A stretch of DNA of 64,000 nucleotides from Bilabrum cf. latius. Its lineage: Eukaryota. Position 1 is the first letter of the stretch, and every line of letters starts with the position of its first letter. This document shows, piece after piece, positions 33,055 to 64,000 of this stretch. The notes under the pieces were generated by a model. That model saw only the letters and a list, made by a program, of their open reading frames with translations. It made no database searches and was not told the DNA's origin. A program made the translations under genes and the position numbers. The DNA lies in NCBI GenBank assembly GCA_965178125.1, contig OZ237737.1, forward strand, positions 1,178,001 to 1,242,000. The letters are read 5' to 3'.

Positions 33055-33490
33055 GGGTGCGGGATGCCCATTAGATATTAGAAATTTGCGTGCGTGTATT
33101 GAACTTTGAGAGGTCATCTGGTTGCTTGCCCAGTCCGCCCGTCCTGGCAGTAGCTGGTTTCGGGTGAATTCCCTTAGGCGTGGGTGTGTTCTCGGGGCCG
33201 CGGGCGCTCCCGGGCGGACGCGTCGCGACTCGTGAGATCCGATCAGCCTACGCTCTGGGGAACTGGGTAGACAGATGTGCCATAGAATCGATTCCATAAC
33301 AAATCATCTCGCCTCTAGTGTGTTGTTGCGGTCTGCTTTTGTGGATACCAACCCCATGACTAAACTGCTCCCGCCGAGCAGCACTGCTGCTGCCAAACCG
33401 GAACCCAAAAGCACAGTTCGCGCCTTTCACAAAACTGCGCCTGAGGGCTCTCTCACCTCTTCATTATCTTGTTTTATTCCGCCTAATAGT

Positions 33491-36400: not shown

Positions 36401-38821
36401 GGCATTGCTGACAAGACCATTCGTGAGAGACCAGATCTGGCTGGAACCGGTGGCTAGGAAGCAGCATCGCGGAAGTCTTCGTCGAGCTCGTCGGCAGCGG
36501 CTGCCGCTGCCGGAATACCTTCTGTTCCGGCAGTACCGTTCCTTGTGAGTGATGCCGTTGTCCTGAAAGTTGGGACGAATGAGTCGGAGTCGTGCACTGC
36601 ACTGCATGCTTTACACAGCCACAGCAAAGCGCACCGCATTGCGGTCGTGTAGGACCCGAAGCAGGGCCGCACACTGCTCGAGTCCCACCCGAAGCTGCTG
36701 CGGTGTGTCGTGTGCGACAAAAGTGGAGGCGTATCGATCATTGGACGGTCGGGCGTGCTGATTGCTGGCAGTGCAGGCGGCAAGAACGCTCAAGGCAAGG
36801 CAAAGCAAGCGCCCGCTGCGGCTGCGACGGGCATGTTTCTTCGTCCGATCTCCCGGAGTGTGCCCCAAGTGCCGCTGCAGACTAGCACTAGCGAGTCTGC
36901 GCTAGCTCCATTTCGAGAAGACATTGAACGGTGTGAGGTTGCCTGCAACGAGGCGGAAGCTGAGTTGGACGGCATCCGAGAGGCTTTCCAGGCCAACAGC
37001 CAACGGTTGGAGGACTTGTCCAAGCGGGAGGCCCGCTTTCGAGAGCTGCACGAGACGCATCGAGCTGCAGCCGAGCGCTACAAGCAGCAAGTGTCAGCGG
37101 TGAAGGCGGTAGTTTCGAGTGAGAAGAAAGGTCGGGAGAAGCTAATCGAGGACGCGCGGGCGAAAGAGAGGGCTGTGTACGAGCTACGTGGCAAGCTGCA
37201 GCGAGCCAAGAAAGCCACGAGACGCTACAGAGCGGCGCTTGAGGAGCTGGACGGCGAGCTGGCTCCAGTGGAGTACGAGCTGCGAGAGCTGGAGCGCACA
37301 AGCGGGTCTAGGAAGCAAGTGCGGACTTTGCAGCGGCAGGCGCAGGACATTCGTGCAGAGGCGGACGATGCACGCACGGAAGCTCGCACGATCAAGATCG
37401 AGTACGACCGGCTCTTCTCTCGCCGGCAGAAGCGGAAGCTGGAGCTAGCGGAGCGCAAGGACATGGTGGAGAAGGGTGACCTCGTGATCGACCAGGGGTG
37501 GAGGGAGGTGCTCGGCGACGAGTACGACCCGGAAGGCCACGATGAGCGCGAGCAGCCTCCCATGGGAATGGAGGACGAGGAGGCGCCCATCACAAAGGAA
37601 CGACTGCAAGAACGCCTCAGGACTCTGGAGGTGCTCAGGCAGCAGGCCAGGCTCAAGGCAGAGGCGGCGAGGAGGGCTGCCAAAGGCAAAGCTCCTCCCA
37701 AACGGACCACGGACGACATCCTGAGAGCCTACCAGCGCGCTCAGAAGAAGATGGAGGTGAATGAGCAGCAGATCGAAATTGCCACCCGTATGCACCGCAG
37801 GGCCTCAAAGATGCTGAAGGTGCGGCACAAGAACATGCTTCGTCTGGTGGAAGAGGCCCAGCAGATGGTCCGCCTCAAGTTCCGGCAGGTAACCATGAAA
37901 TTTCCGTTCAAGAGGACGGAGCTGATCTGGGCACCGGACGACAAGGACGACCCAACGCAGTGCGGGTGCCTGCACATCGACATCGTTCCGTACGCCAGCG
38001 ACCTTGGAGCAGCAGCGGATGGGCACCCTGACGGTGGCAAGGCTAGTCGGGGGTCTGACGACGACGATGCAGACGAGGACGAGGACGAAGACGAGGGCAA
38101 CGTAGATGATGGCACTGGCCGAGTGAACACTGCTGCTTCGTCGGCAGCCAGCGGTAGTGGGGCGGGTGCAGTTGACTACCACGACGACGAAGGCGAGGAC
38201 GAGTCGGAGGGTTTGCGCGGGAGTTCATCTGCGTCATCTTCTCGCGCGCAAGATGTCGGGCTCAGGCAAGACCACCACATCGAGATAGGCAACAGCAGAA
38301 ACGGCATGAGCGTGCACACGCGCCGCGTGCGAAACTCTGAGACGGTGCTGTCAGGGGGTGAGAAGAGCGCGGTGTCCATCGGTCTCATCATGGCGATGGC
38401 TGCGCAGATTGAGACGCCGCTGCGGCTGCTCGACGAGTTTGACGTGTATCAAGACGAGACCAGCCGGCAGCTGAGCATGCAGGCCTTGCTGCAAGGCGCC
38501 TTCCTGGCCGCCAGCAACGGAAACATCAACGGGCACCAGACGGTGCTGCTGACACCGCACGACGTCAGCTCTGCTCCCATGGATCGGTACCCGCCTGGGT
38601 TTGTGAAGGTCTTTCGGATGCCAGAGCCCAAGAGGGTGGGGGCTGCTGCTGGTGCTGCTGCTGGCACGAACGGAACTGCGAGGGGTGGCGCCGGCAGAGG
38701 CAGAGGCCGTGGTGCTGCGCTGGGGGCAAAGCGAGGTCGCAACGGGCGGGCGGTGGGCGTGGGCGGTGCAGGGGTCGTGGCCCTGGGGCTCGTTGATGAC
38801 GAGGACGAAGAGGAAATGTGA
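33491..38821 (+). CDS. SMC6: SMC6-like structural maintenance of chromosomes protein (~1,730 aa with long acidic insertions)
   Basis: GTILKLTMHNFMCH, Walker A GRNGSGKS, Q-loop DNPITFLTQD, coiled coils, signature LSGGEKS, Walker B/D-loop LLDEFDVYQD, and LLTPHD. One frame through TAGs at 33545, 33830, 34166, 35711, 36455 and 36650. Predicted intron 34497-34634. Ends at TGA. Confidence 0.88.
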
Positions 38822-39803: not shown

Positions 39804-42800
39804 ATGAAGGGATTGCTAGGTCTGCTAGCCTCGCTCTACTGCACAACGCATGTGCTGGCCATTGAGCCACAGCCAGTCAAGCCAGTGAGTCGCCCTGTGT
39901 GGCAGCTTGGCCTCGACAGTTGCACTACCGAGTCGTTCTTGTACTTCCCCTTACGTTTGATGCGTCTCTCTTCGCGGTTACACGCAGGAGCCGCTGCCCG
40001 GGGCTGTTGTCATCTCATCTGACAAGAAGGCGCGATTCACAATTCTCACGGATTGCCTCGTGCGGATGGAGCAAGCCAAAGACGCTGGGACGTTCGAAGA
40101 TCGCCCGACACTCGCCGTGATTGATCGCCAGCACCAGGCCCAGTTCAAGAGTGGCGAAGCCGATAGCGTTCTTACTATTGATACTGCATGCCTGACGCTG
40201 AAGTACAAGGTCGGGTCTGCCGACTTCACGGATGCAGGCGCGCTCCAGGCCGTCTCGGCGGAAGGACGGAGCCCGGCTTGGAGCTGGTCCGCCGCAGATG
40301 ACGGTCTGGTGGCCCCAGACAATCTTCTCGGAACCATTCGGTCGCGTGAGTAGCTGATGTCGTGCCTTTCATTTTCGGCGCTATTGTGGTTCTGGTTTGT
40401 CGACAGCTCGCTCGAGATCCATTGCATACCCTGTCGCAGTTGACCAGATCGAGACCGTGTCTTTGAACTGCACCGAGAACGCGGGAATGATGGTCCACGG
40501 GGAGAGCCTGCACTGCGTGTGGGCGCCGTTCAGCCGCAGCGGGTGGCACGTGATCGACGACACCAACACGACCATCCTGGACGACAAGGACTGGGTGACG
40601 AACGACACGAACAGCAACGCGTTCGACTGGTACCTCTTCGGCCACGGGCACAGGTACACCACCGCCATCAACGACCTCAACCTGATCAGCGGCACCAACC
40701 CCCTGCTGCCCAAGTACAGCCTCGGGGTCATGTTCAGCCGATGGTTCGACGTCTCGTTCGGGGACGCACGCAGGCTGATCGAGGACGGTTACGCGAGCAG
40801 GGGCATCCCCATCGACGTCTGGATCACGGACATGGACTGGCACCGACCCTACCTGGCGCCCCCGGGGCAGGACTGGACGGGGTGGACGTTCGACCGCAAC
40901 CTGTACCGCTTCCCTCAGGACTTTTTCGACTACATCTCGGACAAGAAGCTCGGGTTCTCTCTGAACATCCACGACGCAGAGGGCGTGGACAGCGATAACC
41001 TGAGGTACGCAGAGATGGCGAAGGCCAACGGGATCGACCCGTCCACCAACCAGACGGTGGCAGCCCGCTTCGACGACCAGACCTACATGGAGTCACTGGA
41101 GGACATCATGCTGCAGCCCTTCCAGCTTGCCGTGGGCAACAGGTGGTCCCCCTGGAGGGACTGGCAGCAGGGCGGGCACACGGACGTGTCCACCTACAAC
41201 CTCAACCCCACTATCTGGCTGAACCACGCCTCGTGCACCAACAACTACCGCAGAGGGCAGAACTGGAGGGCCTGGACCCTGGCCCGGTACGGTGGGTACG
41301 GGAACCAGCGGTACCCCACTGGCTTTTCTGGGGACGTTCGCCACTCTTGGACCTCTCTGCAGTTCCAGGTGTACTTTAGCACGACTGCCTCCAGCGTCTC
41401 GTATTAGTGGTCCAACGACATCGTCGGCGAGGCCGGCAACTCGGACGACAAGCAGGAGCTGCACACCCGCTGGGTGCAGTGGGGCGCCTACAGCGCGCTC
41501 TTCCGCACGCACGACGCGGGGGGTGCCGTCGGAGGATGCGCAGACCAGGGAGGCTGCGAGGTGGTGGAGCTGTGGGACGCAAAGAGCCGCTTCTTCGAGG
41601 CGAACCGCGCTGCCGTGGCCGCCCGCCTCGCCCTGCAGCCCACGTGGTACACTCTGAACCAGCAGTCCACCGAGACGGGCGTGATGCCCATCCGACCCAT
41701 GTACTTGACCTACCCCGAGCAGGACTCTAGCTACTCCCAGTACGTGCGCAACTCGCAGTTCATGGTGGGCGACAACATCCTGGTAAGCCCCGTCACTGCG
41801 CAGTCTTCTGCCGAGACGCTCGTCGCCAACTGGAGCGTGTGGCTGCCCAACGAGACGTACTGGTACGACCAGGTGGGTGGGCTCATGATCGATCCCATGG
41901 CTGCCGAAGCTGCCGAGAAGGCGCAGCGGGGCCTGCGTGGCAGCGACCGTTCCAGCGACGACGGCATCGCTAATATCACCGCGGCGTATGCCCTCCACGA
42001 GATCCCCGTGTTCTTCCGCGGGGGTTCGGTGGTGGCCCGCATCCCTTACGACCACAGGGACGTGGTCGCCGTGGCGCGCAAGGACTACACTCACCTCATC
42101 TTCGACGTGTATCCCGGGGGCAGCGAGGGCCAAGCCACGGTGTACGAGGACGACGGGGAGACGCTGGACTATTCCAACGGCACGTCCGCGGTGACCCAGG
42201 CGACCTACACGACGGCTCCGGCCGCGGACTCGATGCAGAACACCACGCTCAAGGTCCGCACCACGGGGGAGTACCCCGGCCTCCCCAAGTCACGGGCCTA
42301 CACTGCACGCTTCGTGATGAGCTACCCTCCCGTGTCCGTCAAGGTCGATGGGCAAGACGCTGCGTACAGCCGGTTTGGCTGCAAGGCGGACAGCGCGCAG
42401 GCCGCTGATTTGTCTACCTGCTGGGGCTACGACGGCGACAGCCTGACGCTGACGGTGACGGCCGCAGGCAAACAGACCGTGGAGGGTGCTTCCATCGAGG
42501 TGATCGCGCCCGCGGTGAGCGGTGACCCCGTGGAAGACCCGATAAACGGCGCTGCCGGGGCCATCCAGAGGGCCATCTACGTCAAGCAGAACGTGCTCGA
42601 CCCTGAGATCCGGCCCGGGGACTGCAAGAAGTACCTGTACCAGGTGGAGCGCCTCGCCACCACTGGCGATGCACTGTCCTACCTGGCGCAGCCAGGCTCC
42701 GCTGGCAGCCCTTCGGACTTTGCCGCCACGCTTGCAGGGATCCCAGATTTGCTCGCAGAGTCGCTCTCTGCCGTACAGAGCCTGCCATCGCATGACATCA

Positions 42801-42856
42801 ACGTCACCCGGCAGGCCCACGCGGAGGCTCTGCTGGCTTCTGCCCACGGTTTCTGA
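39804..42856 (+). CDS. Secreted glycoside hydrolase family 31 (GH31_u1-like alpha-glucosidase), ~950 aa
   Basis: Signal peptide MKGLLGLLASLYCTTHVLA; introns 39885-39987 and 40346-40439. Motifs ARFTILT..LVRME..FEDRPT, DWYLFGHG, GIPIDVWITDMDWH, WRDWQQG (nucleophile), RYPTGFSGD (acid/base), ELHTRWVQWG, VYEDDG. One TAG at 41405 inside SVSY*WSNDIVG. Ends TGA TGA. Confidence 0.92.
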
Positions 42857-43747
42857 TGAAAACTCATTGTGCTCGATCCCAACACACTCATGCCGTGTAC
42901 TTATAATCATTTAGCTGCACACTTGGCTCCGCGACGACCCTATGAAACGTGTTATTTGCTGTCCAAAGCAAAACTGGGTTTCGAAACCAAAGGTACACGT
43001 AACCGATAGAACCCTATTTTGCGGCCTTTGGCCTGAAAGGGTCGGGGGTCTTGTAGTTCTTGTTTTAGGGCTCCTCTGGATCTAGGTGATCACCCAAACC
43101 CCTTGGGGGGCGACGGTGCATCTGGGTGCTTATGGAATCTTTACCCAACAATGCATTTCTGTATTTCTGTATTTTGCGACCACTGGCACTTTGCTTCAGT
43201 CGCAGTAACTCTATCCCAAGGGCGCTTTCTTGGCCACTGTAGGGCATCTCTACAAGTGGTTGTGCCCAGATACTATTGGAATCAATATTCTTTTGTCCTG
43301 AGGAGGATCAATTTGGATAAATCAAGCTAAGGTGAGCGAATCTCGTGCAGACTCGAGCTTTGTACGTCATCGATTGCTAGGTGCGAATCTACTGCCAAAA
43401 GCTCAGTTTTCTATTATTCGCTAAAGTGGAATCGGAGAAATCCCGATGATAGTGCTCCATTCAGCCTCTAGGAATGAACTCGACAGCCTGTTGCAGTTCA
43501 TCAGCTTGCTTGCGGCTCAATCTTTGTCCCCATGTTCTTGCCAGCCACCAGCGTGCATGGTTAGCGCTATCACTTGTGCTGAACTTTTTGAACAAGTCTC
43601 CGTCTTGTGAGCAGCAGCCGCCGCTCGTTTTACTGTTGGGAGTCCAGTGTCTGTTTGCAACACCTGTTCGCAGTGCTTGTTGGCAACACCTGTGTGCATC
43701 TACTTTGCGCATCACAACAGGCCCTGTCGATGTCGAGATCAACACAG

Positions 43748-46700
43748 ATGCTAGCGCCAACTGCGAGAAATGACGCACGTTGCTCCTCTAGGGCTTTTTT
43801 GCTATTCGTATGCGCAACTGTCTTGCTCACGCGATGGAGTATGGGTGACAGAGGCTGCTTTCCCCATACGAATACAGGAATTCTTAACTGCTGCAGCGGA
43901 GATAGCTTAATACTGGATACAGATGCATGCACAGCTTGCTCCGGTTCGGCGCCCACTTGCAGGAGTGGATCAGGCATTGACGGCGGATTTTGCACGTTTT
44001 CGCTTGACGAAATTGTCATTGCCCCTGGTACTAACGTAAGATTTGAAGGATTTAGGTGTCAGTATCTATGTTTCTTGTACATGATCCCAAAGCTGCCGAT
44101 TCGTGTCACGGCTCCGTCGGTCTTCCGCAGGTTCAGCTCAAAGGCAGGAAAGGACTGCATTTACAAGGAAGGAATGGAATACACCTCGACGGGGGCATAT
44201 GGAACTTCACTGCTCCCTACAAGGACATCACCGTATCAGCCGAAAAGTTTGGAAATGTAGCCCAGTCCTAGGCCTTGGCATGTAACGGCAAGACGTACCA
44301 AAGCGCCAGACTGGGTATACTTGGCGGTATGGATGGGGGGTACGCGACAGGATACAGCGGAGACACCACCATTCGGCACTCCCACCAAGTATCAGGGCGA
44401 ACATCAGCTCAATAGCCCTAGAGCGTCTAGTTTACTCCGGCCGAGGGAGCGTACGCCTCCAGCTGGACTTCGAGCGGCGTTCCCTCCTAGGCGTCAGCCC
44501 TCCAGCAGTACCCTGGAGCGGCAGGCGGATCCAGGGGTGGTTTCGGTGGAGTCTCGCAGCTAGCAGGTTCTTTCAAGTCCAAGCGCGCCACCAAGTTTAC
44601 CAAAACGCGCGGTGGCACAGGCGGGGGCGGAGGCCTCTCAGTGGACCGGTTCATCACCACGGCAGGCGGCAACAGGATTATCGCGCTAAAGGGCTACGAC
44701 GACGAGCGATACTGCGTGCCGGCGCACGGCGGGGCAGGGGGTGGAGTCATGAAGCTCCACTCTAGCCATGGAGACGTCTATATTGGTCGAGCGCAGATGA
44801 GTTTCGATGGCGCCAATGTCTACGCTCCCGGGGTGGCCGGTGGCGGAAGCGGCGGAACCTTGCAGATCTGGATGCCAGGGAGTGCCAAGGTGATTATCTC
44901 CAAGGAGGCTCGTCTTACGTTCCGTGGGGGGTACACGCGAGCCACGCCGCCCAACGTGTGGACTGGTGCCACTGGCGAAGACGCCCTAGGCGGAGGTGGC
45001 GTTCTGGAGATCATGAGGATCTCCTGGTCTACGGGCGGCAAGCTAGAGGTGCGACTTCTCCCTTCAAATATTGACATGTCGTCGGGGGCGTACATGTGTC
45101 CCAGTGCCACAGACCCAAGCATCACGGGCCCTCAGCACTGCGACTGCTCGGCCGCAGTGTGCGGGTACGAGGACGGCAAAATCGACATCATTCGAGACAA
45201 TTGGGCCGGCAACCTCGCAGGATCCAGCGTGGGTGACGTGCGGCTCACCGCTGCAGAGGTCCCCGATACCATCGCAAACGTGCTCAACGGCGTGCAGGAC
45301 ACATGCATTCAGCCGCGGATGACTCTGCTGACGGGAGGCAACGTGCCGAGCTCCTACTCACCCGCCACGGGTTGTTGCTACGACCCTGCTGGGGGCCAGG
45401 AGATGCGCATCCGCGTCAGCACGCTTCGCGGAGAAACTTGGACGCACGACTTGACGAAAGACGTGGAGGTGTTCGCTGCCGGGATTTCTATCCCGTCGAG
45501 CGACATCTCGACCACTGGGGTGCAGGGATCGTCTGCCGCAGCGACGCGGTTCGACGCTGTCATCAAGCTGCCAGCCATCCACGGAAGCAACATGAACGTG
45601 TCTGTGCGCACAACGTACGGAGGGCAGAAGCGCATGTACACCGTCGATAATGCTTTCTCGACCACTCTGCCGTCGGTGGATGCAGGCATCGTGAACGCGC
45701 CTCCCGTGCATCTGCGTTGGACCAACATGACGGCAGAGCCTTACCAGTGGAGCTTCATCCTCAAAGGCAACAATTTCGGGGCCAGGGACAACGACTAGGT
45801 GGAGATCACCGTGGGTGGACAGCCATGCATGCGCACCCGCGTACTGAACTCGACCCACGCGCAGTGCTGGCCGAGCAGCGACGTGGGAGAGGACAGGCCC
45901 GTCGTGCTCAAGGCAGGGGATCGGACTGCAGGCGGAGCATCGAACACCATCGACTTTGCGCCGCCTATCATGTTTGCGGTGCAACGTGCCAGCAACGAGG
46001 ACCATGCGCGTGGAAGGTACCACAAGGTGAACGGCGGCACTGACGTGTTGATCAAAGGCGTCAACTTCGGAGTGTCCATGTGGTCCGACGACGAAAGTCG
46101 TGGGTACAAGTTCCAAGAGAACATGCTGAGTCAAGCTCACATCGACATTGCTTACACCTATCGGACGGTGCCTGGCCAAACTTCTGTGCGTCACGTAGCT
46201 TGCCACAACATGCGCTACTACAATGATCGGCAAATCGGCTGTAGGCTCTTACAAGGAGCCCATTACATAGATGGGTTTAGGCTCAGGTATCAACGGAGCG
46301 GGGCGTATGTGTATCCTAAATCGTAGCAGTTTTACTGGAGCTACGATGGAGTTGATGTTCGAGACGTTCTGCAATCCATCGAGCCAGGAAGCGGCGACGA
46401 GTGGCACTCGATTGGGCTCGATGGAAGCAAGTGGTCCGACATCTTCCAGGGCAGCCGGATCGATGGGGTCATCCCCGCGCTGAATTTCTCGCAGGTGCAG
46501 ATGACGAGCATTTCGGAAGGTTCGAATTCTATTTATTGCAAGCTGGACCCGACGGATACCTCCGGGGGAGTGCTTCGATTGCGGGGATCCAGCGTTCCGC
46601 ACGTCTAGGCCAGGGGCTCCGATTTTGGCTAGCGAAATGCCCCGGACAGAAATGCCATACGATTCCGCCATGGCTCTCAGGCCTCTGCGGTTACCGTACT

Positions 46701-49700
46701 GAGTCGTGACAATGCAGGAAGTGACGTGAGGATTCGACTGCCCCAAGGGACGGGTGGACCCAGGCCATTTACGACGTACTACGAGCACATGGAGCCTAAG
46801 TGGTTCTGCCAGGTTGGCTACGAGCCACCTGTCATCACAGGGGTCACCTTGTCGGGTTCGTCGACGTTTAGTCTTGCGGCTGCCGGTGATCAGACTCTTC
46901 AGATTGCTGGGAGAGAGTTTGGCATGGACACCACTGCAACCACTGACGGCACGCTAGCTGCTAGCAAGGCGAACGTATTGCTTGGAGATCGCCCGTGCGC
47001 ATCTGTGATCCGGGACTCGACCACAACTCTGCGGTGCATTACTCCAGCTGGGGTCGGGGGACCGTTCAGAGTCAAGGTTACCGTGGATGGACAGACAACG
47101 GCTCAGACCAACTTCAGAGTGAGTTACAACGCCATCACAATTTCCTCCGTGTAGCCCAACACGGCGTACGCTGTGGAAGACAAGTCTACCTCTTTCATCG
47201 TGACGGGGTCCAACATGGCTGTGGCAACCCGCATGTCGGAGCTGCAGATTCAAGTCGGCGGTGTCAGCTGCGAGAACGTCACGGCGTACACGGTTGATAA
47301 CGGCGGGGTTGCGTCAGCTGTCGACTGCCGAATCAACGGTACAAGGTTGCGACAGGTATCAGGCAAGACTGTAGCAGCCACGGTGAACGGTATGTCCGCC
47401 ACGTTTGCATCTGGCGTACTCATTTATGGCTCACCAAGCATTGAGCTAATCGGTGGGGGGTTTGCCGGCACGGACACCAATACGACTGTGCAGATTCGGG
47501 GACGAAGTCTGGGAAGGTCATCAGCAAACATCAAGTCCGTGAAGATCGGAACGTTTCCGTGCGTTGATGTCGACATGCAGGAGCAGACAGACGTGCAGGA
47601 CAACCGGTAGGAGTTCACGTGCGTGCTGCAAGGCGGGGCAGGGACCGATCACGACATTGTTGTGGAGCTAGTGGAAGGCGGGTCTGCGGCAGCCTCTGGG
47701 GTGTTCTCGTTTCAACCGCCTACTTTGGTATCTGTCACCCCCGATGAGTCCAGTATCGGCGCTTTCTTTGCAGATTTTGTCATTTTTGGGTCAGACTTCA
47801 GCTCGCAGGAGTTTGGACTTCTTCCATCCGCCATTACAGTTGGAGGTTCGCCATGTGGCTCGCTTGAGCTCTATAACTCGAGTGCAATTGGATGTCTAAA
47901 CGTCAGTGCGAATGCCTTTTCGGAATCTGGGGTATCAGTTACGTTTGGCGGCTAGACGACCACAGCTGGTGGAATTTTCACGTTCGTTGGAGCGCCTAGG
48001 GTAGACGGATCCCAGCCTGCTACCGGTAGCGTAAATGGCGGGTACAACTTGACTTTGACTGGCGAGAACCTTCCATCTGTGCGGACAGAATTGCTTTCGT
48101 TCACTGTTGGTGGTCGCCCGTGCATCGAGGTTTACCTGAACCCCTCTGGAGAAGACATCGTGTGCATGGTCCCGCCAGGTGTCGGGGCGGTCGTGGATGT
48201 CATCGTGGTCGCGGTTCGAAACGGTGCCCAGCTGCGCGCTGGCGGTTCTGGGTTGTTTCGGTATGATCCGCCATCAATTTCTTCCATCGTGCCCAGGTAT
48301 GTGCTCGTGGGACCTCAAACGTTGCAGTTTGTTATTCTGGGGTCCAATCTCGGAGTGAGGAACGTATCGGGTGCTACTCCGGAGATCATGGTGGCCGGCG
48401 TCTAGTGCTCGAGCATTGAGGTGCTGAACAGCTCGGCCGTGCTTTGTGGCACTTGGTCGAGAGAGGGCGATGCTGAGTACTCGACCAATGCTGTGATCCT
48501 ATCCGTTGGTCAGGTGAGTGCCCGCAACACAGAGGTGCTCTCAGTTGTGAGCCGTCCAATCGTGTCAGCTGTGTCACCAGCCAGTGGGCCCACGCGAGGC
48601 AGTACGCAGGTTGCTGTCACTGGGACTGGGCTTGGCTTCAGCGGGGCGCAGGATGTGCAATTCGTGAGCATTGGCGGTCGCTCGTGCACCAATATTCAGC
48701 TTATTTCACCAACCTGGGTGAGCTGCCGCACGCCGTCAGGTGCGGGGCGAGGCAAAGACGTCTAGCTGACGAGTTCTACGGGTGTCATCTCGACCGGAGG
48801 GGTCGGTCTGTTCGATTACAACCCGCCGACCATTCGCGCTGTCAGTCCCAAGCATGTGCTGACTTCGCCGGATGAAAGCACGACTTACAATATCACCATC
48901 ATTGGAGAGAATCTGGCCGCTCCTGCAGCTGGGAAGGTGCCATCACAGGTAGTTGCTGCTGGGCTTTCGTGTAGCAGCGTCACTGTCCTCAATGAGAGCG
49001 CGGTGCGATGCAACAGCGTTCCAGCTAGTGATTGGCCAAGCAGTGTAATATCTGTAGAGATAGAGCAACAGGTCGTTACTTCGCGCGATACCGATACTTT
49101 TCGGGCTTTCAGGTCACCGTCGGTCGCAGCTGTTGTACCAGCAGAAGCGGTGAGCCGGGGCCGGCTCAACGTCACTGTGATCGGGGCGGAATTTGGCTCC
49201 GGCCAAGGTGATATTGCAGCAATTTACGTTGGAAGTACGGCGTGCCTGGCGCATTACTTTGTGTCTGATAGCATCCTTACCTGCGTGTTGCCACCCGGCA
49301 TTGGTCAGGACCATGAGGTGGTTGTCGAGAATTCGCTGGGGCTTCGCAGCTCAGACGGGGCCTTGTTTTCATACTCGTCCCCTTTAATTCACTCAATCGA
49401 GCCCGGAAGGTCTTTGGAAGGCGACGCTTTCACCGATTTGATGATCAGGGGCGAGAACCTGGGTGCGGTTGCTGCAACTGCGGGCCCCGCCAGGTCGCTC
49501 CGTGACCTTCGTGGTCCTTGGGTTGACATTGAAAGATGCGAGAACGAGACCGTGGTGCGACAGAAGGAGACTTGCGTGAACCGATCGCAGATTGCCCTAG
49601 GCCTCCCTTGCGACAGCGGAACACCGCTCACCAGCAGTATGGCCTGCGTCAACGGCAGCATCGTTGCCGACAACTCCACCTTGTTTCTAGATACGGTATG

Positions 49701-52700
49701 CACGACGGCAAACGTGTCGACAATCGAGATTGTGTGTCGTAACGTGACACCTTGGAGCGTTTGGACTTCGTCTGATGGCACTGAGTACCCCGTGCTGAAC
49801 GACCTCTCCGCTCAGCTCGTGCACAACGGTTCCGGAGTGATGGCACCCACTCGTCTCGAGATCGGTGGATAGTACTGCTAGGGTGGAGTCTTTGTCGTTG
49901 ATGATGAAGCTATCCTGTGTCACGCAATCTCTCTCGAGACTTTCGAATCGCCTCGGGTGGATCTAGAGATAGGTGGTCAGACTGCCACGAGCTTCAGCGC
50001 ATTTGAGTTCTTGGAGGAGCCGTTTGTATCGGCTGTGCGACCCGCCAGCGGCCCCACCATAGGGGGTACAACCATCACCATCTCTGGCGTCGGCTTTGGC
50101 AGGACGGATGGCTCGGATCTTTCGTCTGGGATACGAAGCGAAGACGCTGGAGTAACCGTGTCTCGCCGTCCGTGCACGGACATCAAGGTGCTGGATTCTC
50201 GGACTATTACCTGCAAGACTCCGGCAGGCATTGGTCTAGACCGTGAAGTTCAAGTGCGGAATGCCATTGGAAAGGCGTCCAACGCTGCACCGGTGTTTGA
50301 GTATAACGAGCCCGTGGTCTTGAGCAGCAGTCCTGCGCACGCCGTGCTGGCTCCACCCTTGTCCTCTGCAACTAGGTCTATTGAGATCAGCGGAATCAAC
50401 CTGTGGTCTGGCGATCAGCGCGATCCGCCGCCAATTGTGACCGTTGCTGGTGCATCCTGCGACTAGGTGCGTATGCAGAGCCCAGAAGTTCTATTGTGCA
50501 GCGTACGTCCCAGCGAGTTTGGCATCTCTGGAGAGATCGAGCTTGTGCCTGCCACTGACTCGAGGCAGCGAGTCGTGCAACGCAGTGTGTTTGAAATATA
50601 CTAGGGACCTGTCGTGAGCAGCTTTGATGTGCCTAATAATACCATCCCACAGCGTGGTTAGGTTCAAATGACCATTCGTGGTTCGCAATATGGTGCGAGC
50701 TTGGCAGACATCAGCAGTGTCACGTTGGGTGGAGCTCCTTGCAGCAATCTGCAATTCAAGAGCTCGTCCGAGTTGCTGTGCTAGGTCCCTCTAGGCGCCA
50801 CCGGCAGCAACCCGATCGTGGTCACCAATTCTGAGGGTTACTCATCGAACACCAACGTTCAGTTCTCGTACGCTCGACCGGTGATATCGAGCGTCGAGCC
50901 GTCGTACAGTCATGTGTACGCGTCGAATCGGACGCTTCAGTCATTCTTTATTTCGGGACAAGGATTCGGATGGAAGCAGGAAGATTTGGATACGATTGTG
51001 GTTGGCGGAAATCCGTGCAAGCCCGTTTGGCAGAGCCCAACCTCTGTTCTGTGCGAGGATGTTGATGCGACGTCTTGGACTGGAGCAAGCAGAGATGCGG
51101 TGTCGGTCAAAATAAACGATCTGACCACATCGCAAGCCGGCATTTTTACGGTGTATGACTCACCGTCTGTGTCTACGGTCGCACCGAATTTCGCATAGAG
51201 TCTCGGCGACATCCCGTCTGACTCAAGCTATGTGCCACTGGAGGATCGGCCTCCTGTCCCAGTGTACAACAACATCTCTGTATGTTCCTTGCAAAATGTC
51301 ACGGACAATGGTGTACAAGTCGTGAGAGATGTCTGTACCATTGTGACGAATGTCACCTATGAGCCGGCCCGCGCTGCCAGCGATGAACCGTACCCATCAC
51401 CGTTCCAGCAGATCACTTGCAACGACTGCGGCCAGCGAGCAAGCGATGTGGTCGGCGTGGATGTCGGGGGGCGCCCGTGCACGGATGTCCGAAGTGAAGT
51501 CGTCGGTTCAGCCATTCAGGTGCGATGCAGGGCCCCGCCTGGCACCGGCACTCGCGTCCCACTCACGGTGCATCTGCTTGGAGGGTCCGGACGGTGGAGA
51601 GATTTTGAGTACCGTGCTCCAGTCTTGACTTCAGTCAGCCCCCCAAATTTTCTTTAGGGCAGCCCCGACAACTACACAGGCATCGAGATCCACGGGTCCG
51701 GCTTTGGTCCGTCCGATTACCAACTAAAGCAGACTTATGGCGCACACACAGACTACGCTGCCAGCCCAGTGGAGCTTGAGTTGGGTCAGTTTCCGTGTCT
51801 GGACCTGGACCACGTTTCCGACACTCTGCTCGTGTGTAGAACCATGCGGGCCCCGGCAAGCAGGGCTGTTTCAGTGGTGGTTGACCAGCAATTCGCCACG
51901 CAAAACCTCATGCAGCTTGCAAACCGGCCGGTCATCACCACAGCAGTGCTGCCGGCCGACACCGTAGCATCGGTTGATGGCAATTTCAACGTGACCATCC
52001 GCGGCTCGTTCGGTTGGGTAGAAGAGGACGTCAAGGCCGTGAGGATTGGTGATAGCCCTAGTCCACGATGGTACTGGCAGAGCAACGAGTTCATCATTGC
52101 TGAAGCGCCTCCTGGTTACGGCCGCGCGGCGGTCGTTGAGGTCGAGTTGAGGAACGGCCAGTTCAGCGGCAGGTCGCAGACGATCCAGTACGCACCGCCC
52201 GTGGTGACGGGCATGGAGCCGTCTGTTCTTTTACCCAATGCGGGCAACATCACCGTGAAGATCTTTGGCTCGAATCTCCCGCCCGAAGCCAGCATGATTG
52301 GCTCCATCTCGGTTGCGCAGTACCCGTGCCTCTTGACCGTCGTGAATAGCAGCCTGTACCTATGCGATCTAGTGAATGTTAAGGAGTGGCAGGGGTCTGC
52401 GCTGCAGATCAACGACAAGTAGCAAACTGCCACTGTGTTTGGTGATACATTTGTGGGCCTTGGCGCGCCCCGCATCACCACGCTGTCGCCGCAAAACGGG
52501 CCTACGGACCGCCCCACAACGGTGACACTACGAGGTCAGAATTTCCCCGCGAAGCAGGAAGACCTCGTTGCTGTGTATGTAGGTGGTGTGAGGGCAACCA
52601 ATGCACGAGTAGCCTCTGAACAGGGACAAACTGGTGAGATCCCGATCATCGCCGAGTTTCCCCCGGGCGCTGGTGCTGATATTCCTGTCTGGGTAGAGCT

Positions 52701-55700
52701 CAGGACAGTTTCGTCAGCTGCCGTGCCGATGTGGTCGTACGATCGACCTGAAATCGAGCAGATCGACCCGGAAGAAACGTTTGCGGGCGAATTTGATCTC
52801 GGGCTTACCATTATAGGCAGCAACTTTGGCACGAATCCTGCTCACCTGGGAAACATCACCGTAGTATCGAGGGAGGATGCTGCCCGCGCGGCAACGTGCA
52901 GTGGAAGCCCTGTTTGGCACAGTCCGACCATGATAACTTGCACAGTGCCTCACATGCCCGCGACGATGCCGCACGGCGGTATTCAAGTGTTCGTTGAGAT
53001 CGAATCCCAGCTTTCCATTGCCGTGGGCTCCGGTCAAAGCGCCTTTGTGCTGGGGAGGCCTTTGGTTGAGACCATTTCACCCACGACCGCAGCCGGGAAC
53101 GATAGTATCCTCATCCTTGGGGAGCGGTTTGGCGACAGCGATGACGATATTGAGTCTGTGTCTGTAGATGGGCAGGAATGCCTGGCCTGGGAGCGTCGAG
53201 GTGCAACCGCCATCCAGTGCATCGTCCCGTTCGAGTCTGAGGCTCGCAAGGCTGCTGGCGCGCTGGATACGTCGGCATTAGTAGGCCTGGATGTCGCAGT
53301 GCGAACCCGAGGCGGCCTACAGAGCGAGCCTAACGAATTTTTTGGGTATGCATCGGCCTCGGACGAACCATTTAACGCACCCTTTGGCGTGGTCGGATAC
53401 CGCGAGCAAAATTCCGTCAGCCTCATCAAGTTGCAGTGGCTCTACACTGATAGTGACCTTACCAGGTCAAGAAACCTGCGATTCTACCAGACTGCTCAGG
53501 AGTTTTACGTGTACGCCTATCCTTTGGACGAACGGCTAGTCCAGGATCTGGGTTTCTTTTAGCAGAACGCTAGTCTCGGAATGCAGGAAGGTGATGCAGA
53601 CCAGCCATCTGCGAGAATTCCCCACTCGATCTTGTTCTCGTCCCCTCCGACAGATTCTTCCGGAAACCAGCTAAACTCGACATCCGGCTTTATCGTCCAG
53701 AGGTACGATGCTCGGGTGGTTAGCCAGACGCCTCTTGACAGGTACACAACCACGGCGAGGTATGAGGTGGACGTGCCGGGGTTCCAGGCCCGGCCGTACA
53801 TCTTTCAGGTTGCCGCGAGCAACAATGCCGGCCAAGGACCCATGTCTCATCCCAGCGCAATCGTGTTTGAGGCGTGCGCCTCGAACCAGTTCCTAGCTAC
53901 ACACAAGGCCGCCACTGAGCCTGAGAGGGCAGTCTGCGTTGCATGCCCGGACGGTGCGTTCTGCGGCGGTCTTCCGAGCGAGAACGTCACGGCGCAGGCA
54001 GGCGCATGGCGCGTGCCATGGTCAAGCGAGGGTCTCTTGTTCGAGAACTGCCCTGAGCCTACAGTGTGCCAGGGGACTCCGACGGACATCGACGCCATCC
54101 TTGACGCTCTTGGGGGCACAAGTGGCGATGAGAATACCCCTGTAGAAGCAGAGACGGATGCTTTAAATTCTACATCGGCCCGCGAGCTCGGCGCGAGGTC
54201 TTTGACCGGCGACTGGTCTGAGAATGCGGCAGCAAGATCGCTGCAAGGTGTTCCGCCTGCCGTAGAGAGCCTGCAACGGTTCGGTGGGCGGCGAGGCAAC
54301 TACTCTGAGGCGGCACTGGTGAACGCGCTGCTTGCAACGCTGCAGCAGCACAGCACTGACCTAGAGGTATTCAGGATTCAGGAGCACCTGTCTTGGCACA
54401 GTGTCGACTTGACTAGAATGCCGTACCCTACTTTAGTGCTTGATCCCGAAGAGCAGGAGGGCTGCACGGAGGGCAACTTCGGTACGCTCTGCACCCAGTG
54501 CTAGCTCAACTATGCGCGAAGCGGCACGTTTCAATGCCGACGTTGCGCCGATAGGCGCTATATCATCGTCCTAACCGTGATTGCGTTCTGCGTGCTGATT
54601 GGCGCTATCAGTTTTGTTATCCGCGGCACGCTGATGACCCGCCAGCGCGAGGGCAAGGTCGAGATCATGGTGATCAAGATCGGGTTCTCGCACCTGCAGA
54701 CAGTCGCGCTGGCCTCGTCCTTTGAGCTGTCCTGGCCGAAAGAGATTGTCAGGTTCTTCGACGTGGTGGACACGTCCAGCAGCATATCGCCAGACATTGT
54801 CAGCGTTGATTGCCTGTTCCCACGAACCGGTACTCTGGGATCACGCACGTTCTTTCTTACTACCTCAATGATCCTCGTGGCGCCCATCGCCTTCGTTGCG
54901 GTCGTGTCTATCTTCTGGTTGGGCCGCTTCACCTGCACGGCGGCTGGCAACTCTGGTGCCACGAAACGGATCATCGCCCGGTCCATCGATATGGCTGCAT
55001 CGAGACAGCTGGAGAGGCAGGCCCGCGAGCGCGAGGAAGTGCAGATGGAGTCCAACCCGATGAATCCGACAGGTTCGTCGAGGAGCGATCTGGCGCAATC
55101 GAGCGCGGACTCAGAGGCGCCTCTCAGTAACTTGCTTGATCGGCCAGCTGCCAATGCATCCACCAATCGTTCGCGAACGTCGTTCGAGCCTCGGGCCCCT
55201 GCAACGTCCAAACGGAGTCTGCTAGGCGGCGGAACAAGTGCACAGGGCAGCCCGTCGCGCGGCGTGCAGCCGCTCAAGGGTCTGCGGGCGTCGAGTCCTG
55301 ACTCGAAGCGGGCAGCGTCGCAACCGGGCTCCAAAGCGGGTTCATCATCGTTCGCGTTAAGCGCAGCTCCGCCTCCGCGCAAGCCACGCCCACCTCCAGG
55401 CAAACCCACCTCCAGGTAGCGATCGGGCTCAAACTCCTCATCAGGCAGCAGCTCGGCCAAGTCGGCCATCATGAAAGTTTCGCTTGAACAGGCAATTGAC
55501 CTCGCCGAACAAGCAGCTAGGGCGCTAACGGAGCCGCAGAGCACCACCTCGAGGAGCAAGAGCGTGAGGCTGTCAAGCAAGGGTGCGAGGCGATTCCGGA
55601 GTTCGATTCGACGCGCAAGCAAGATGTCGAGGTCTTTGTAGGGTCATGGTGCTGGAGACAACGGCCTCAAAGAAAATCCGATCCATCTGGCCCTGGCCAA

Positions 55701-57222
55701 CTCGCGCCAACCCGGGACTCCCTTGTCCTCTTCATCCCAGTCACCGCTGTTCGACCATGCGTCACCCGTGAATGTCGGCGATTCCGAGCCTCTCTCGGAG
55801 CAGGACGAGCTAGCGAGGGGCGAGACTGACCTGGTGTCTCGTGTGAGCGAGCTGGCCATCCGTGCAGGCTTGGGGCCTGTCGAAATCGCTGAGCTGGTCA
55901 ACATCGCGCAGGCACACTTCAAGAAAGCGGCCACTTGGCAGCACACTCTGGAACGCATCATGGTAAGCAGCCTCGTGGTGGGATTCCTGGTGCATGCCAC
56001 CGTATCCCGGGCAGCTCTGCTGCTATTCACGTGCATTGGGGTGGGCGATGTGGAGGGTGCCTACGGCCCAGATGGTCAGCCCATTGACCAGGCTGAGGAG
56101 AGGCGCGTGCTGCTCCATGACATGGCCGTGGATTGCAGCAGCAACACCGCACTCACCTTCCGATACGCCGTGGGACTGCCATTCTTCGTGCTATACTCGA
56201 TCGGGGTGCCGCTTCTTGTGGGCACCCTGCTGTATATCTACAGAGAAGAACTGCAAAATCCAGCGTTTGGCCGCCGATTCTACTTCCTTTTCGCTGGTTT
56301 CAGAACCAAAGCGGTGTACTGGGAGAGCGTGGTGGCCCTTCGTAAGGTTGGTATTGCTGTGATCGCTGTGTTCCTTCGGCCCCAAGGCATTGACGTGCAG
56401 GCGTATTGCGCCCTGATCCTAGTGTTCGTCGGTGTCGTGGTGCACTCGAGGGCATGGCCGTACCAGAGCCAGGTGCTGAACCTGCTTGAACTGCAATGCC
56501 TGTGCACGCAATTCGTGACGTTCTACTGCGGGCTGTTCTTGATCTCGCCCAGCGTGGACGAGGCCGGCAAGGAGACAGCAACTTCGGTGATGCTGCTCGC
56601 CAATTCGTTCTGTCTCATCAGCATTGCCACCGTGCTGATCGGCCGGCAACTCGCCGCCCAGCTGCACAAGTGCGACCTGTTGAACCCCAATCCCACTTTC
56701 CCAAGCGACCGAACGTGGTCGTAGTGGTGCTGCAGCATGTGCTTTGCGATATGCCTGCCGTCCGAAGAAGAGCTCAGAGCAGCATCCACGAAGTAGGTGC
56801 AGAAGGAGAGCAAGCTCACTCGGTACTTGACCACGGCGCCCCAGGTCACCTTGCTCAAGGCGGGGCAGGGCGACTTACGCCGGGACGATCTCGGCGACGA
56901 GGCCGGCGAGGTGGCCAGCGACCAGACGTCTGGAAGGCAGGTCCGGGCCGGTTCTTTCTCTCGGAAGAGCCCGGGTCGCGCGGCGGGGCGAAGATCGTCA
57001 AACGTCCACTCCATGGCGCGGTCGCCGTACGCTGCTAAAGCTGCTGTGGCGCGGCTGTCGACGAACCAGAGGGGAAAGGGGTCTGGTAGCAGGTCGTAGA
57101 GCGTGATCGACAGGGTGAAGTCGATCGGTGGCTAGGAGGTGGTGAGCCCGATCGTTTCAGCCGCGGGACGAGCTGAAGAGGTCGCATCGTTCCGCGAGCG
57201 TGCGAAGCAACAGCGACCTTGA
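43748..57222 (+). CDS. Giant multipass membrane protein (~4,460 aa): signal peptide, Gly-rich region, ~20+ IPT/TIG repeats, FN3-like domain, Cys-rich region, multipass TM domain
   Basis: Start ATG 43748 (or 43730); intron 44036-44130 (GTAAGA...CGCAG); then one frame through 31 TAGs to TGA 57220-57222. IPT motifs (P.i.sv.P..G...GG..iti.G.nfG...v.vGG..C); FN3-like YIFQVAASNNAGQGPMS; TM region with FLFAGF....YWE.VV.LRK and ..AWPY....LN.LE. Confidence 0.88.
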
Positions 57223-57666
57223 TGCATAGCACAGCTGGTGAGGTAGTCGCAACCACAGGCCGTCATACGATGGCTCCGATGTGACCGCACGGCGGTGGTG
57301 CTCTGACAGGACCGACTTGATTGAATTGATTTGCACATGCTTTGCTATTGCTACTCCACGTCAAGATCTCAACTACGACGCGCCCTCAGAATCAGAAAGT
57401 AGAAGTTGGTGAAAAATTACCGTGTAAAGTAGCAACGCAAAGCACACTAGACCATTGACAGGCGCGCCCCTCAACCCAGCTGATCCTGATCTTGCTGAAA
57501 CCGCGCGCTCTGAGCCAGCAACCTCGCAGCTCAGCTGACGAGGGTTGCGGCACACGCAGAATCAGCTCGAGTAACAGACCAGTTGGAGCCACAGGACGCG
57601 ACGAGCAAGGCCAAGCAAAGACAAGATGCTAGAAAATGATACAAAAACGAACGCACTCGCAGACCA

Positions 57667-60600
57667 TCACCCGCGCGAGCCTGAGCCAGACCCCGTGCGG
57701 CCGGCCCTCAGAGCTGCGAGCGACTGCGAACCGTCTCCACCCACCAGGCTCCTCCCGGAGCCCGTGGACCCACCCCCGTCTCCAGACGCTCCTGCCTGCG
57801 TCGAAGTTGGCGCAAAGACGCTGCGTCGAGACCGGCGCTGTCCCCTTCTTCCCATGGGGTTCCTGGACATGCCGCCCGCCGCAGCGGCAGCCGCCGCCTC
57901 GATCGACGACTGCGGCTTGGACTGCCGGTTGACCTCCGCCGTGTCTGCCTCCTTCCTCGCCTCCTTGGCCTGGTCGGTCAGCGAGCGCACCTGCTGCTGC
58001 AGCGTGCGGTACTGGTCCCTGAAGATCGACCACTGCTCCTTGTCCGGCGGCGTGGCCATACCATCCATGGCCTCCTCGGCGTCAAGCGAATCGGCCAGCA
58101 GATTGCGTTGGGAAGCCCTCGCAAAGACCGGGTTGGTCTGCTACTCGATCACGCCCACGATCTGATCCTCTTCGGTCGGCAGGCCAGACTCCACATCGCC
58201 GCTCTTGCCGGGCCGACGGGCCCCCATCCCGGACCCGCGACGAGCCTTCTTCCCCGCCTTGGCTAGTTTTGCGTTCTCAGCCTCCGAAGCCGACGCACAG
58301 AGTGTGTAGATGTCGTACGCAAATACCGCGAAGAAGTAGATCAGCGTGCCGAAAATGACCACGAGGGTCAGCGCGATGAGAGTGTCCCTGTACCCAGCAT
58401 AGTACTCACCCGTCTCGTCCGTGTTAAGCTGGCCCGAGCTGAACATAATGCCGCTCAGGTTAACCAGCACGGCAGATCCCAGCAGAACGGACTCGATGGT
58501 ATTGTAGTTGATGGCGGCCCCCATCACTGTGCCACCGAACTGCACGAGCAGGTTGGGTGACTCGGTCAGCCTCTGGAAGCCCTGTCCGTACGTGGCCCGC
58601 TTCCTGCCCTTCTGCACCACCGACTTGATGGTGGCTGCCAGCTTGGAGTGGGGCGAGCTGGGGTCGAATGACAGCCGCTTGTGCTGCCTGAGCGTGTCCT
58701 CCATCTCGTCCGGTGACATGAAGGGATGCACCCTAGTCTGAGCCGCGAAGGCCGTAAACATGACCAGAAGGCTCATGGACAGCTGCATCACCGGGTTGCG
58801 CACGAACAGCAGTGACGTCAGCGCGAAGAAGAACTTGCGAGCAATCAGCGCCAGCATCCAGTAGATGCGGTAACCGATGGGCTTGAATGCGAAGTACATC
58901 TTTGAGTACCTCCTGCGGACCGTGTACGCGTTGGGGTTCGTCACGGTGTCTTCGCCCTGCTTCATTGCGCGCAGCAGCTGGTCCTCCATGACGAGGTCGT
59001 GGTTGGTGTACAGCACGTAGAACACGATCGCAGGGAAACCCAAGCCGTAGACCAGCAGCGTGACGATGGCAGGACCCAGAAGGGTCCGATGGATGCCACC
59101 AGGCTTGGAGCACGGCTCGAACACCACCTGTAGGTACAGCCGCCCGTCTGCGTATGATAGATCAGAAATGAAGAAGAGACCAAAATTGGAGAGGCTGTAC
59201 AGCCGAAGACAGGCAAAACACGCTGGGATCCACCGAGACGAGCTCACCTGGCGGAGTAGTAGGCTGCGATGATGTGAGGATGAAGGAAAGACAACACGTT
59301 TACAAGTAACGTAGCCAAGTAAATCCAATAAAAACAAAAGAAAAAGAAAGATGAAGAAGAAATAAGTGCACAAAGGTGCACCGTGGTGACCCGGGGGTGC
59401 AGCATCGAAGCATCGTAAAAGGCTAGACTCAAAGCGACTCACTTGGCAGTTGAGGACATCAAAGGACGTCCGAGAGAGAATGAGATACAAGATGTACCCG
59501 CCAACCAGGAACATAGAGACGCACCTATTCAGGTGCTGGCCAAACCACGCCTCCGTCCGTGTCTTGCGCTTGATGCACCAATCATATGCCGAAATGCTGA
59601 CATACACGAGGGTTAGGCACAGCAACCCAGCCACCGGCAGCATCATGATGAACATCCACTTGGACATGTAGCTAAGATCGGGCACGGTGCACTCGGGCGC
59701 GGTGATCTCGATGTTGAGGTTGAAGGCGGACAGGATGTGAAGAATATCCTGCAGCACGGGCGGCCACGGCACTCTGGCCATGGTGTACAAAGAAAGTACC
59801 TGAAAGTAGTCCATGCCGAGCGTTGTGAGAACCAGGTTGATGTTGTACTTGGCCAGGAAGAAGACGAACCCCACGCCACAGATCATGATGATGATGAATA
59901 CTGCGATCAGGATCCACGGGTTGTCGGGGCACTCCACGCATTCCCCGGCGCGGCGGTAATAGCCCTCGTCACACGCATTGCACCGCCACTCTGGACCGAC
60001 ACTTCGGTAGCCCGTGGCGCAGAAGTTGTCCCCGGTGCACGCCCATATAGGGTCGCAAGGCACGACGCACTGCGCACGGTCTGGGATCCTGAACAGCTCG
60101 GGGCACTCTGAGAGCTGGTCCGTTTCGTTGAGGTTGTACCAGCCCTCCTGAGGCCTTGGCTGATGGAAGAGCACGTTGCGGTACTTGAGCTGCCAAGGCC
60201 CATCGTCGTCATCGAGGTCGATGGTGAGGTAGCGCGGGTCCTGAAGGGACGCGCCGAGGCTGCGAGCGTTCTCGGGGGACCGAAGCTCGTCCTCAGCTTC
60301 TTGTCCTTCACCGCCCTCACCCTCCTGCAGCATCCTCCTCTGCTCGTTCTCCTCCTCAAACTGAGCCTGCAGCAGCTCGATCTGCTCCCGCAGGCCGATG
60401 ATCTCCACCTCGCGGCTCGCGATAAGATCGGCATGAAGCTGGGGCACTAAGCGCGTGTGGCCATTGCAGTCGGCGCCTCTAGGGCAGGGCAGGCACAGCT
60501 CCGAAGGGTCGGCGAAGAACCCTCGGTCGCAGGCAAAGAGCAAAATGTCTTCGGACGTACCGTTCTGCCCAGCTGCTGACACTTCGATCGCCTTGTAGCC

Positions 60601-63600: not shown

Positions 63601-64000
63601 CGCGCGGTCCAGACCATGACTCGCCGGGAGATCAAACACGACCTGGTGCCTGCCATCCTCTAGGATCCGCGTGGATCGTGGCTGGATGAGGGCACCCTGG
63701 GACGAGTAGTCGGCCGGGTTGCCGAAGGCCACAGCCACATCGGAGGCCGCATGGAGCAGGCCGAAATCTCGTCCCACTACCGTGACTGTGGATGGGTCCG
63801 TCACAGTGTCTGGGAACCAAGACGCGGGCGAGAGGGACTCCACGCTGGGCCGCGCGTACGACACGGACCCAACGCCTACATCCGAGGGGAGACTGCTCTG
63901 CTCTGCCACCGTCACAACAAACACGAGGTCCCTGCCGACTCCAGGCACCATAGTCGCTCGGATTTCCGTGTGGGAGACTAGCTCAATGTCAGTGGCCTCG
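57667..64000 (-). CDS. Giant IPT/TIG-repeat multipass membrane protein, paralog of the 1-14871 gene (5' part outside window)
   Basis: One frame from 64000 through TAGs at 63187, 62677 and 58141 to TGA 57667-57669. Introns 59264-59442 and 59148-59247 flank a 16-nt exon at 59248-59263. Shares ILSAFNLN.EITAPEC.VP.LS, EDQLLRA and (Q)TNP.F with the 1-14871 gene. Confidence 0.9.

Follow-up and report, generated by a model that had tools for sequence, protein, structure and literature searches.

We analyzed a 64,000-nucleotide window (G000:C3:1178001-1242000; 60.6% GC) from an assembly of 48.6 Mb in 111 contigs, in which a giant gene for a protein with IPT/TIG repeats is interrupted by TAG codons that are almost certainly read as glutamine (Gln), as part of a genome-wide nuclear code. 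The gene lies on the forward strand in three exons. The first (43276..43331), whose start was placed from 54 letters remaining in a contig of run X5, is untranslated and is connected to the second by a GT..AG joint (43329/43672, cut +2) seen in runs X5, X6 and X8. In the second exon (43674..44035), the long frame has its first ATG at 43730, after which comes a stretch that by eye resembles a signal peptide; the third (44131..57356) carries the IPT/TIG repeats and a TGA stop at 57220-57222. Hydrophobic, membrane-like segments were recognized by eye at the C-terminus. The protein matches Pfam TIG (E 4e-114), and its ESM Atlas matches were generic IPT/TIG clusters only, under 0.9. Starting at 43730, the spliced frame runs for 4,466 codons with 31 in-frame TAG and neither TAA nor TGA before its TGA end. 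Within 44131-57219, the frame likewise holds 31 TAG, 0 TAA and 0 TGA; in each of the five remaining frames, TAA occurs 9-29 and TGA 43-121 times. This open, TAG-containing frame is far from chance.

The GT..AG intron at 43332-43673 is absent from contigs of runs X5, X6 and X8, and the second intron (44036-44130) from those of X5 and X6. A 13,644-nt spliced X5 contig spans 44131-57356 with 0 differences, and all 31 TAG are kept. The RNA nature of the runs is an automatic guess, none of them being recorded as RNA, and for X5 the label 'probably DNA' counts against its use as a transcript, although the GT..AG joints favour RNA. Contigs lose rare variants, which would hide partial editing. However, an origin of the TAGs as sequencing errors, pseudogene lesions or RNA-edited sites is hardly credible, given that TAG is the sole interruption in 19 dynein heavy chains, eRF1 and GluRS, that runs from three studies, spliced ones included, show 0 differences, and that a separate taxon (L202, see below) has the same pattern.

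An earlier sequence-only reading of this window had argued that TAG sits at Gln-favoured positions of the IPT repeats. The TAGs it had listed at 47953 (VTFGG*TT), 49870 (EIGG*YC), 27493 (IQ*SIDEN) and 20723-20725 (reverse strand) are all correctly located. The interval 47944..49881 on which it relied contains five in-frame TAG (47953, 48403, 48763, 49870 and 49879, all forward), of which it cited two, leaving out 48403, 48763 and 49879. Three genes of the window supplied 41 IPT repeats, which we aligned with a hidden Markov model (HMM); Gln accounts for 3.6% of the repeat residues. When registered by eye, the TAG at 47953..47955 falls in the Gln-rich VDGQTT column (Gln in 15 of 33 rows, Gly in 11), while the HMM puts it one column to the right, where Gln occupies 2/28. 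The column of the TAG at 49870..49872 is made up of Arg (8), Val (6) and Gln (3 of 32). No Gln preference was found in the alignment for the remaining three sites: the column at 48403..48405 is mostly Pro/Ser (Pro 14/32), and those at 48763..48765 (Gln 3/34) and 49879..49881 (Thr 6, Ser 5 and Leu 5 of 33) are variable. The positional argument thus holds at one of the five sites, and there by eye. We rejected the repeat columns as proof of the codon's meaning, the repeats being too divergent.

The meaning of TAG was instead read from conserved genes. Dynein heavy chains were collected via 28 AAA_6 matches, yielding 19 genes, every one of which was examined. Their longest frames contain 405 TAG in 91,477 codons and no TAA. 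When the paralogues are compared among themselves, TAG stands opposite Gln in 23/48 conserved columns and opposite Glu in 9. Against outside dyneins (60 of 120 homologues, every second match taken), Gln was the residue at 37/71 TAG columns of at least 70% consensus and at 28/44 of at least 90%. Control codons fell in Gln columns at rates of 333/543 for CAG, 38/63 for CAA and 45/718 for GAG. The 34/71 conserved TAG columns without Gln speak against a Gln codon, although CAG does no better. Of the 405 TAG, 195 are in columns with at least 20 homologues. Two likelihood models both chose Gln, with correct calls for the control codons. Of all Gln codons, 9% are TAG (251/2,799), a share that climbs as GC content at third codon positions drops (rho -0.83, 19 dynein genes). 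Beyond the dyneins, 73/111 coding segments hold TAG, and the single eRF1 gene that was found contains two in-frame TAG, the first of which is opposite Gln in 116/118 homologues (two fused matches excluded). By these comparisons, TAG is a sense codon genome-wide and behaves as CAA/CAG at conserved columns. The dynein genes themselves (L056-L093) are nearly intron-free, 18 of the 19 consisting of one frame of at least 4,300 codons.

A relative with the same pattern was found among 80 metagenomic dynein loci. Locus L202 is 85% identical to its counterpart over 1,178 codons and contains 13 TAG with no TAA or TGA. Its TAGs stand opposite CAG (10), GAG (2) and GAC (1), and the two TAGs of our assembly in this stretch are opposite CAG and GAG. 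Judged by these exchanges, the L202 organism has the same code. Many TAA and TAG occur together in 19 of the 80 loci, as in organisms using NCBI table 6, which served as a positive control. The nearest relatives compared at the DNA level, L149 and L150, have 0 TAG in 2,811 and 2,330 aligned codons, respectively. Further relatives, P0001-P0004 (P0001/P0002 being a sister pair), are available as protein only and so have no bearing on code usage.

The sequence-only reading had held that Glu was not formally excluded, and had named Glu, Leu or another residue dominating the conserved UAG columns as what would refute it. Gln dominates, with 28/44 columns against 7 for Glu. As the sole meaning, Glu is rejected by 94.7 log units relative to Gln in the second likelihood model, while a minor share of up to 23% is compatible with the mixture model, a point that tells against a pure Gln codon. 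That UAG stands for Glu alone, or for Leu, is very improbable. Such a code could draw on the Glu at 9/71 TAG columns and on the second eRF1 TAG, at human position 69, where 117/118 homologues have Leu and which also fits Gln poorly. The L202 exchanges (CAG 10 vs GAG 2) nevertheless favour Gln over Glu, and the tRNA with a CUA anticodon described below differs from Leu tRNAs in its variable loop of 5 nt.

Ambiguous decoding, mainly as Gln with some Glu or Tyr, is a subtler alternative, suggested by the mosaic character of this tRNA, which keeps C1:G72 and C38. Glu is the second residue at TAG columns (7/44 vs 34/543 for CAG), and the GluRS gene (L228) contains two TAG, at a column of which Trp occupies 35 and Tyr 24 of 150. 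CAA, however, has the same Glu share as TAG (9/63 columns; mixture weight 0.10 vs 0.09 for TAG, range 0-0.23), and the mixture assigns TAG 0-2% Tyr, 0-5% Leu and 0-1% Trp. Aromatic consensus is found at 2/122 TAG vs 6/150 CAA columns. Residues vary at the GluRS column (Gln at 14/150), and we rejected it as a hint of Tyr. We consider ambiguous decoding quite unlikely.

Gene ends were used to identify the remaining stop codons. Conserved dynein C-termini could be seen in 13/19 genes (of the other six, five extend beyond the fetched DNA and one is broken earlier) and are followed by TGA in 10 cases and TAA in 3. Together with the eRF1 gene, which ends in TAA, TAG is found at 0/14 verified ends. 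Across 464 kb with 111 coding segments, 51 end near their stop (TGA 44, TAA 7), a count in which a TAG end is impossible by construction. The coding score drops after 12.8% of TAG (n=196), which resembles CAA (16%, n=319) and CAG (7.3%, n=1,866) rather than TGA (77.8%, n=63). Based on these ends, UGA (mostly) and UAA terminate translation. This differs from NCBI table 6, where both UAR codons specify Gln: UAA is a stop here, with 0 TAA inside dynein frames. UAG could still be position-dependent, sense within genes and stop at some ends. In line with this and unfavourable to a purely sense UAG, 8 of the 60 other segments, whose score ends early, have TAG within 10 codons of the score end, and the GTS motif, E55 and S70 of eRF1 are intact. 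The chance of such a dual meaning appears slim, since TAG is missing from the 13 dynein ends and from the eRF1 end, one dynein carries TAG inside its last 20 codons, and no TAG depletion was found near stops (TAG is 7/50 of the Gln codons within 30 codons of the end vs 83/1,131 of those more than 100 codons away).

Changes that may have accompanied the loss of UAG as a stop were found in eRF1. The substitutions A27T, G29A, N30D, I35V, S60V and K130H, near the GTS and NIKS motifs, occur in 0/118 homologues. Position 69, encoded by the second TAG, would be Gln. Gln at this position is also present in the eRF1 of PDB chain 8ip8, the one other sequence that showed it, so Q69 is not enough to account for the code. 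Readthrough of UAG is raised by L69A, and the rhizarian exLh has Ala69 (PMC5304391). The first PF03463 locus taken up as eRF1 (L055) was Pelota-like and was rejected. As for the synthetases, GlnRS (L227, G000:C33) shows 0 TAG in the 751 codons seen and has Gly in place of the human/Thermus Arg of the FKRL motif in its anticodon-binding domain. We take this Arg to read G36 and plants to have Gly there as well, and give the change little weight.

Further, we identified one nuclear tRNA with a CUA anticodon (tRNA-CUA; G000:C23:907607-907679; Rfam 69.8 bits), which forms a clean cloverleaf with perfect stems; its internal promoter boxes are intact, and a T-run follows the gene. The tRNA set consists of 48 Rfam matches, a lower bound, and additions from two pattern searches; no UUA-anticodon tRNA was found among them. 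One locus considered as such a tRNA (L102) turned out not to be a tRNA and was dropped. The sequence-only reading had implied a one-step origin of the decoder from tRNA-Gln(CUG) and had pointed to phylogeny as a way to check it. A whole-sequence tree left tRNA-CUA unplaced (support 0.16), and its stems were therefore set against those of 34 other nuclear tRNAs, one base pair at a time. The single tRNA-Tyr(GUA) shares 6/7 acceptor pairs and 4/5 anticodon-stem pairs (including G27.U43) as well as the 5-nt variable loop, and the two differing pairs are both compensatory. Its 10/12 compares with 6/12 for tRNA-Gln(CUG) and 3/12 for tRNA-Gln(UUG), and over all stem pairs the counts are 14/21, 11/21 and 10/21, respectively. 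A value of 10/12 exceeds every one of the 535 comparisons between tRNAs of different amino acid specificity (maximum 8; pairs not independent) and equals the isoacceptor level. The acceptor stem of tRNA-CUA was found only in tRNA-CUA and tRNA-Tyr genes, and C1:G72 occurs in these two alone among 35 tRNAs. Descent from tRNA-Tyr is thus likely on the evidence of the stems, contrary to the implied tRNA-Gln(CUG) origin.

Signs of a changed identity are present as well. Eukaryotic Tyr identity requires C1:G72 and A73 (PMC9976931), and tRNA-CUA has lost A73 in favour of the discriminator G73. Its D-stem, T-loop and G73 are those of tRNA-Gln(UUG). Relative to tRNA-Tyr, four changes (G2-C71, pyrimidine 34, A37 and G73) go towards the E. 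coli Gln identity set (PMC1483225). Considering codon behaviour, tRNA-CUA is quite probably the Gln-charged decoder of UAG. Several observations weigh against such a decoder: the Tyr element C1:G72 is kept; the D-stem is shared with tRNA-Arg(CCU), which makes the Gln likeness non-specific; C38 is as in the genome's tRNA-Glu; and U1-A72, G3-C70, G36 and U38 of the E. coli set, which is bacterial, are absent. To these comes the incompleteness of the comparison, as His, Leu and Glu(UUC) tRNAs are missing from the set and Ser is represented by one tRNA only.

Alternatively, UAG could be read as Gln by near-cognate tRNA-Gln(CUG) via G36:U1 wobble with an eRF1 that ignores UAG, tRNA-CUA being silent or minor. 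Two tRNA-Gln(CUG) genes are present, tRNA-Gln readthrough has been published for standard-code cells (PMC13192750), and tRNA-CUA is single-copy without visible tRNA-Gln descent (6 and 3 of 12 pairs). This explanation is nonetheless rather doubtful: perfect stems, two compensatory changes, intact promoter boxes and the T-run point to selection on tRNA-CUA, and 9% of Gln codons would be a heavy load for wobble reading.

Other members of the tRNA set were unusual in their own right. Two nuclear tRNA-Ile(GAU) genes (L008 and L040; G000:C32 and C4) and a tRNA-Val(GAC) (L232, G000:C9:632630-632770) were recovered, while Ile(AAU) and Val(AAC) were not seen in the recovered set and Ala, Thr, Pro and Arg tRNAs use A34. 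G34 in the Ile and Val boxes is unusual for eukaryotes. The tRNA-Trp(CCA) (L229, G000:C40:414960-415100) has an A31.C39 mismatch that leaves four anticodon-stem pairs; no sign of UGA as a sense codon was seen. Near-identical CAU tRNAs (L022, L032, L036 and L043-L045), three of them with U37, have stems like tRNA-Pro(UGG) (8/12 pairs) and might represent a second identity switch or pseudogenes. A repeat that resembles a tRNA and contains A and B boxes occurs near many contig ends (L236 and about 19 other places, mostly at such ends) and is possibly a subtelomeric short interspersed element.

Taken as a whole, the genome very probably uses a code with UAG as Gln and with UGA (mostly) and UAA as stops, for which we infer accompanying changes in tRNA and eRF1. 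The proposal of the sequence-only reading that TAG means Gln therefore stands, on the dynein columns, the codon exchanges with the relative, the eRF1 Gln column and the tRNA-CUA gene. A copy of tRNA-Tyr(GUA) would have become tRNA-CUA by G34C, would have lost Tyr identity via the change from A73 to G73 and would then have been charged by GlnRS. Because of C34, it would read UAG but not UAA. Stopping at UAG by eRF1 may have become less efficient through the changes beside the GTS loop (27-30), S60V, L69Q and K130H.

To place the organism, we built single-gene trees. In the dynein tree (38 rows, star alignment, FastTree), the assembly and L202 nest within a larger clade that is sister to ochrophyte orthologues, and in the eRF1 tree the assembly belongs to a ten-member clade that includes Bicosoecida sp. 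CB-2014 (support 0.991, FastTree; one named bicosoecid in a single-gene tree). A cox1 search found no named close relative among 120 matches. The mitochondrion follows the table 4 reading with a UCA tRNA, both of which are reported for bicosoecid mitochondria (PMC6723347). Based on these data the organism is likely a stramenopile and probably a bicosoecid. The mitochondrial genome (G000:C111, L046-L049; 38,401 bases) yielded 10 tRNAs and has very long rps3- and rps4-like frames (named by eye); TAA closes 15/15 of its listed frames. Besides the 1,700-nt 18S gene of the C12 array, the assembly has a different one of 1,802 nt (L050, G000:C95:6099-7900). It looks dinoflagellate-like and presumably belongs to a co-occurring organism.

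The neighbouring genes follow the same pattern. Seven long window frames of 830-4,390 codons are open with TAG as sense, each holding 1-32 TAG and 0 TAA/TGA, and Pfam identifies them as IPT/TIG and cadherin proteins, an SMC protein, a GH31 hydrolase and a Tel2-like protein. A giant membrane protein with cadherin and IPT repeats (1..12740, reverse strand), which extends past the window edge, has 7 in-frame TAG. It is followed on the forward strand by a Tel2-like frame (PF10193; 15831..19784; 9 TAG, TAA end), a cadherin-like giant protein (21481..33054; 14 TAG, one being 27493; TGA end), an SMC-family protein (33236..38821; 6 TAG, TGA end) and a GH31 glycoside hydrolase (40358..42856; TGA end) whose single TAG is inside the TIM-barrel match. 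On the reverse strand lie a gene assigned by eye to the glutathione peroxidase family, with an in-frame TAG at 20723..20725, and an IPT membrane protein (57667..63999; 3 TAG, TGA end). An intron region at 59150-59443 (reverse strand) contains a 16-nt micro-exon between AG and GT, where run X5 has 13 letters between the sides of the joint.

Few lineages are known in which UAG and UAA differ in meaning, and a decoder tRNA of the Gln type had previously not been found in the sources available. This genome offers code, tRNA, eRF1 and GlnRS together with recoded and standard-looking relatives, which makes it possible to test what eRF1 changes abolish stopping at UAG alone and what makes Gln so frequent an outcome of stop-codon reassignment. 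Its 60% GC and main stop UGA are contrary to the usual setting, and the UAG-sensitive position 69 of eRF1 is itself specified by a UAG codon. On the practical side, standard gene callers would truncate about two thirds of long genes (73/111 segments). The literature searched contained no stramenopile nuclear code variant, although supplementary survey tables could still name the lineage, and, being mostly open-access, no natural Tyr-derived Gln tRNA-CUA. We slightly favour the view that this is the first stramenopile nuclear code variant and that its amber suppressor began as a copy of tRNA-Tyr, later passing to GlnRS via G73, G2:C71 and A37.

Compared with known systems, UAG-only Gln codes exist in Iotanema, Protocruzia tuzeti, Hartmannula and Trochilia, UAG-only Leu codes in exLh and three ciliate metagenome-assembled genomes (MAGs), and a Ser code in Scotinosphaera (PMC11687900, PMC5304391). 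The fornicate Iotanema spirale likewise reads UAG as Gln with UAA and UGA as stops, but UAA dominates there and its eRF1 carries T32G, whereas GTS is intact here; the decoder tRNA itself escaped identification there, its predicted source being tRNA-Gln(CUG) (PMC5304391). The ciliates Hartmannula sinica, Trochilia petrani and Protocruzia tuzeti also reassign UAG alone to Gln. In five recoded phyllopharyngeans, however, 87-98% of genes end in UAA, while UGA leads here (44/51; 10/13), and neither H. sinica nor T. petrani yielded a suppressor tRNA, in contrast to the tRNA-CUA present here (PMC11687900, PMC10089648). The rhizarian exLh and the TARA phyllopharyngean MAGs share the split of UAG from UAA and use Leu. 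Position 69 of eRF1 is altered to Ala in exLh and is a UAG codon here, and the ciliate MAG tRNA-CUA derives from tRNA-Leu, whereas ours is Tyr-like. Nuclear tRNA-CUA genes also decode UAG in the ciliate PL0344 and in Blastocrithidia, where they resemble the tRNAs of the inserted Glu, unlike the Tyr-like tRNA and Gln-like codon seen here (PMC10553269, PMC12153298). A suppressor derived from tRNA-Gln, as in the Tetrahymena type, does not fit our tRNA-CUA, which is closest to tRNA-Tyr.

The closest parallel to the proposed decoder comes from laboratory amber suppressors. A classic E. coli su3 discriminator mutant reportedly inserts Gln, which was not found in the review checked. The CUA anticodon brings U35 and attracts GlnRS, and yeast tRNA-Tyr(CUA) variants accept traces of Gln, although these suppressors are engineered, involve the E. 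coli enzyme and have low efficiency (PMC1483225, PMC2965240, PMC9976931). If the proposed origin is true, nature has repeated this laboratory mischarging, and synthetase promiscuity rather than the parent tRNA can set the amino acid of a stop codon. Overall, the code belongs to a known type; the supergroup branch appears to be new for it, and the decoder is unexpected.

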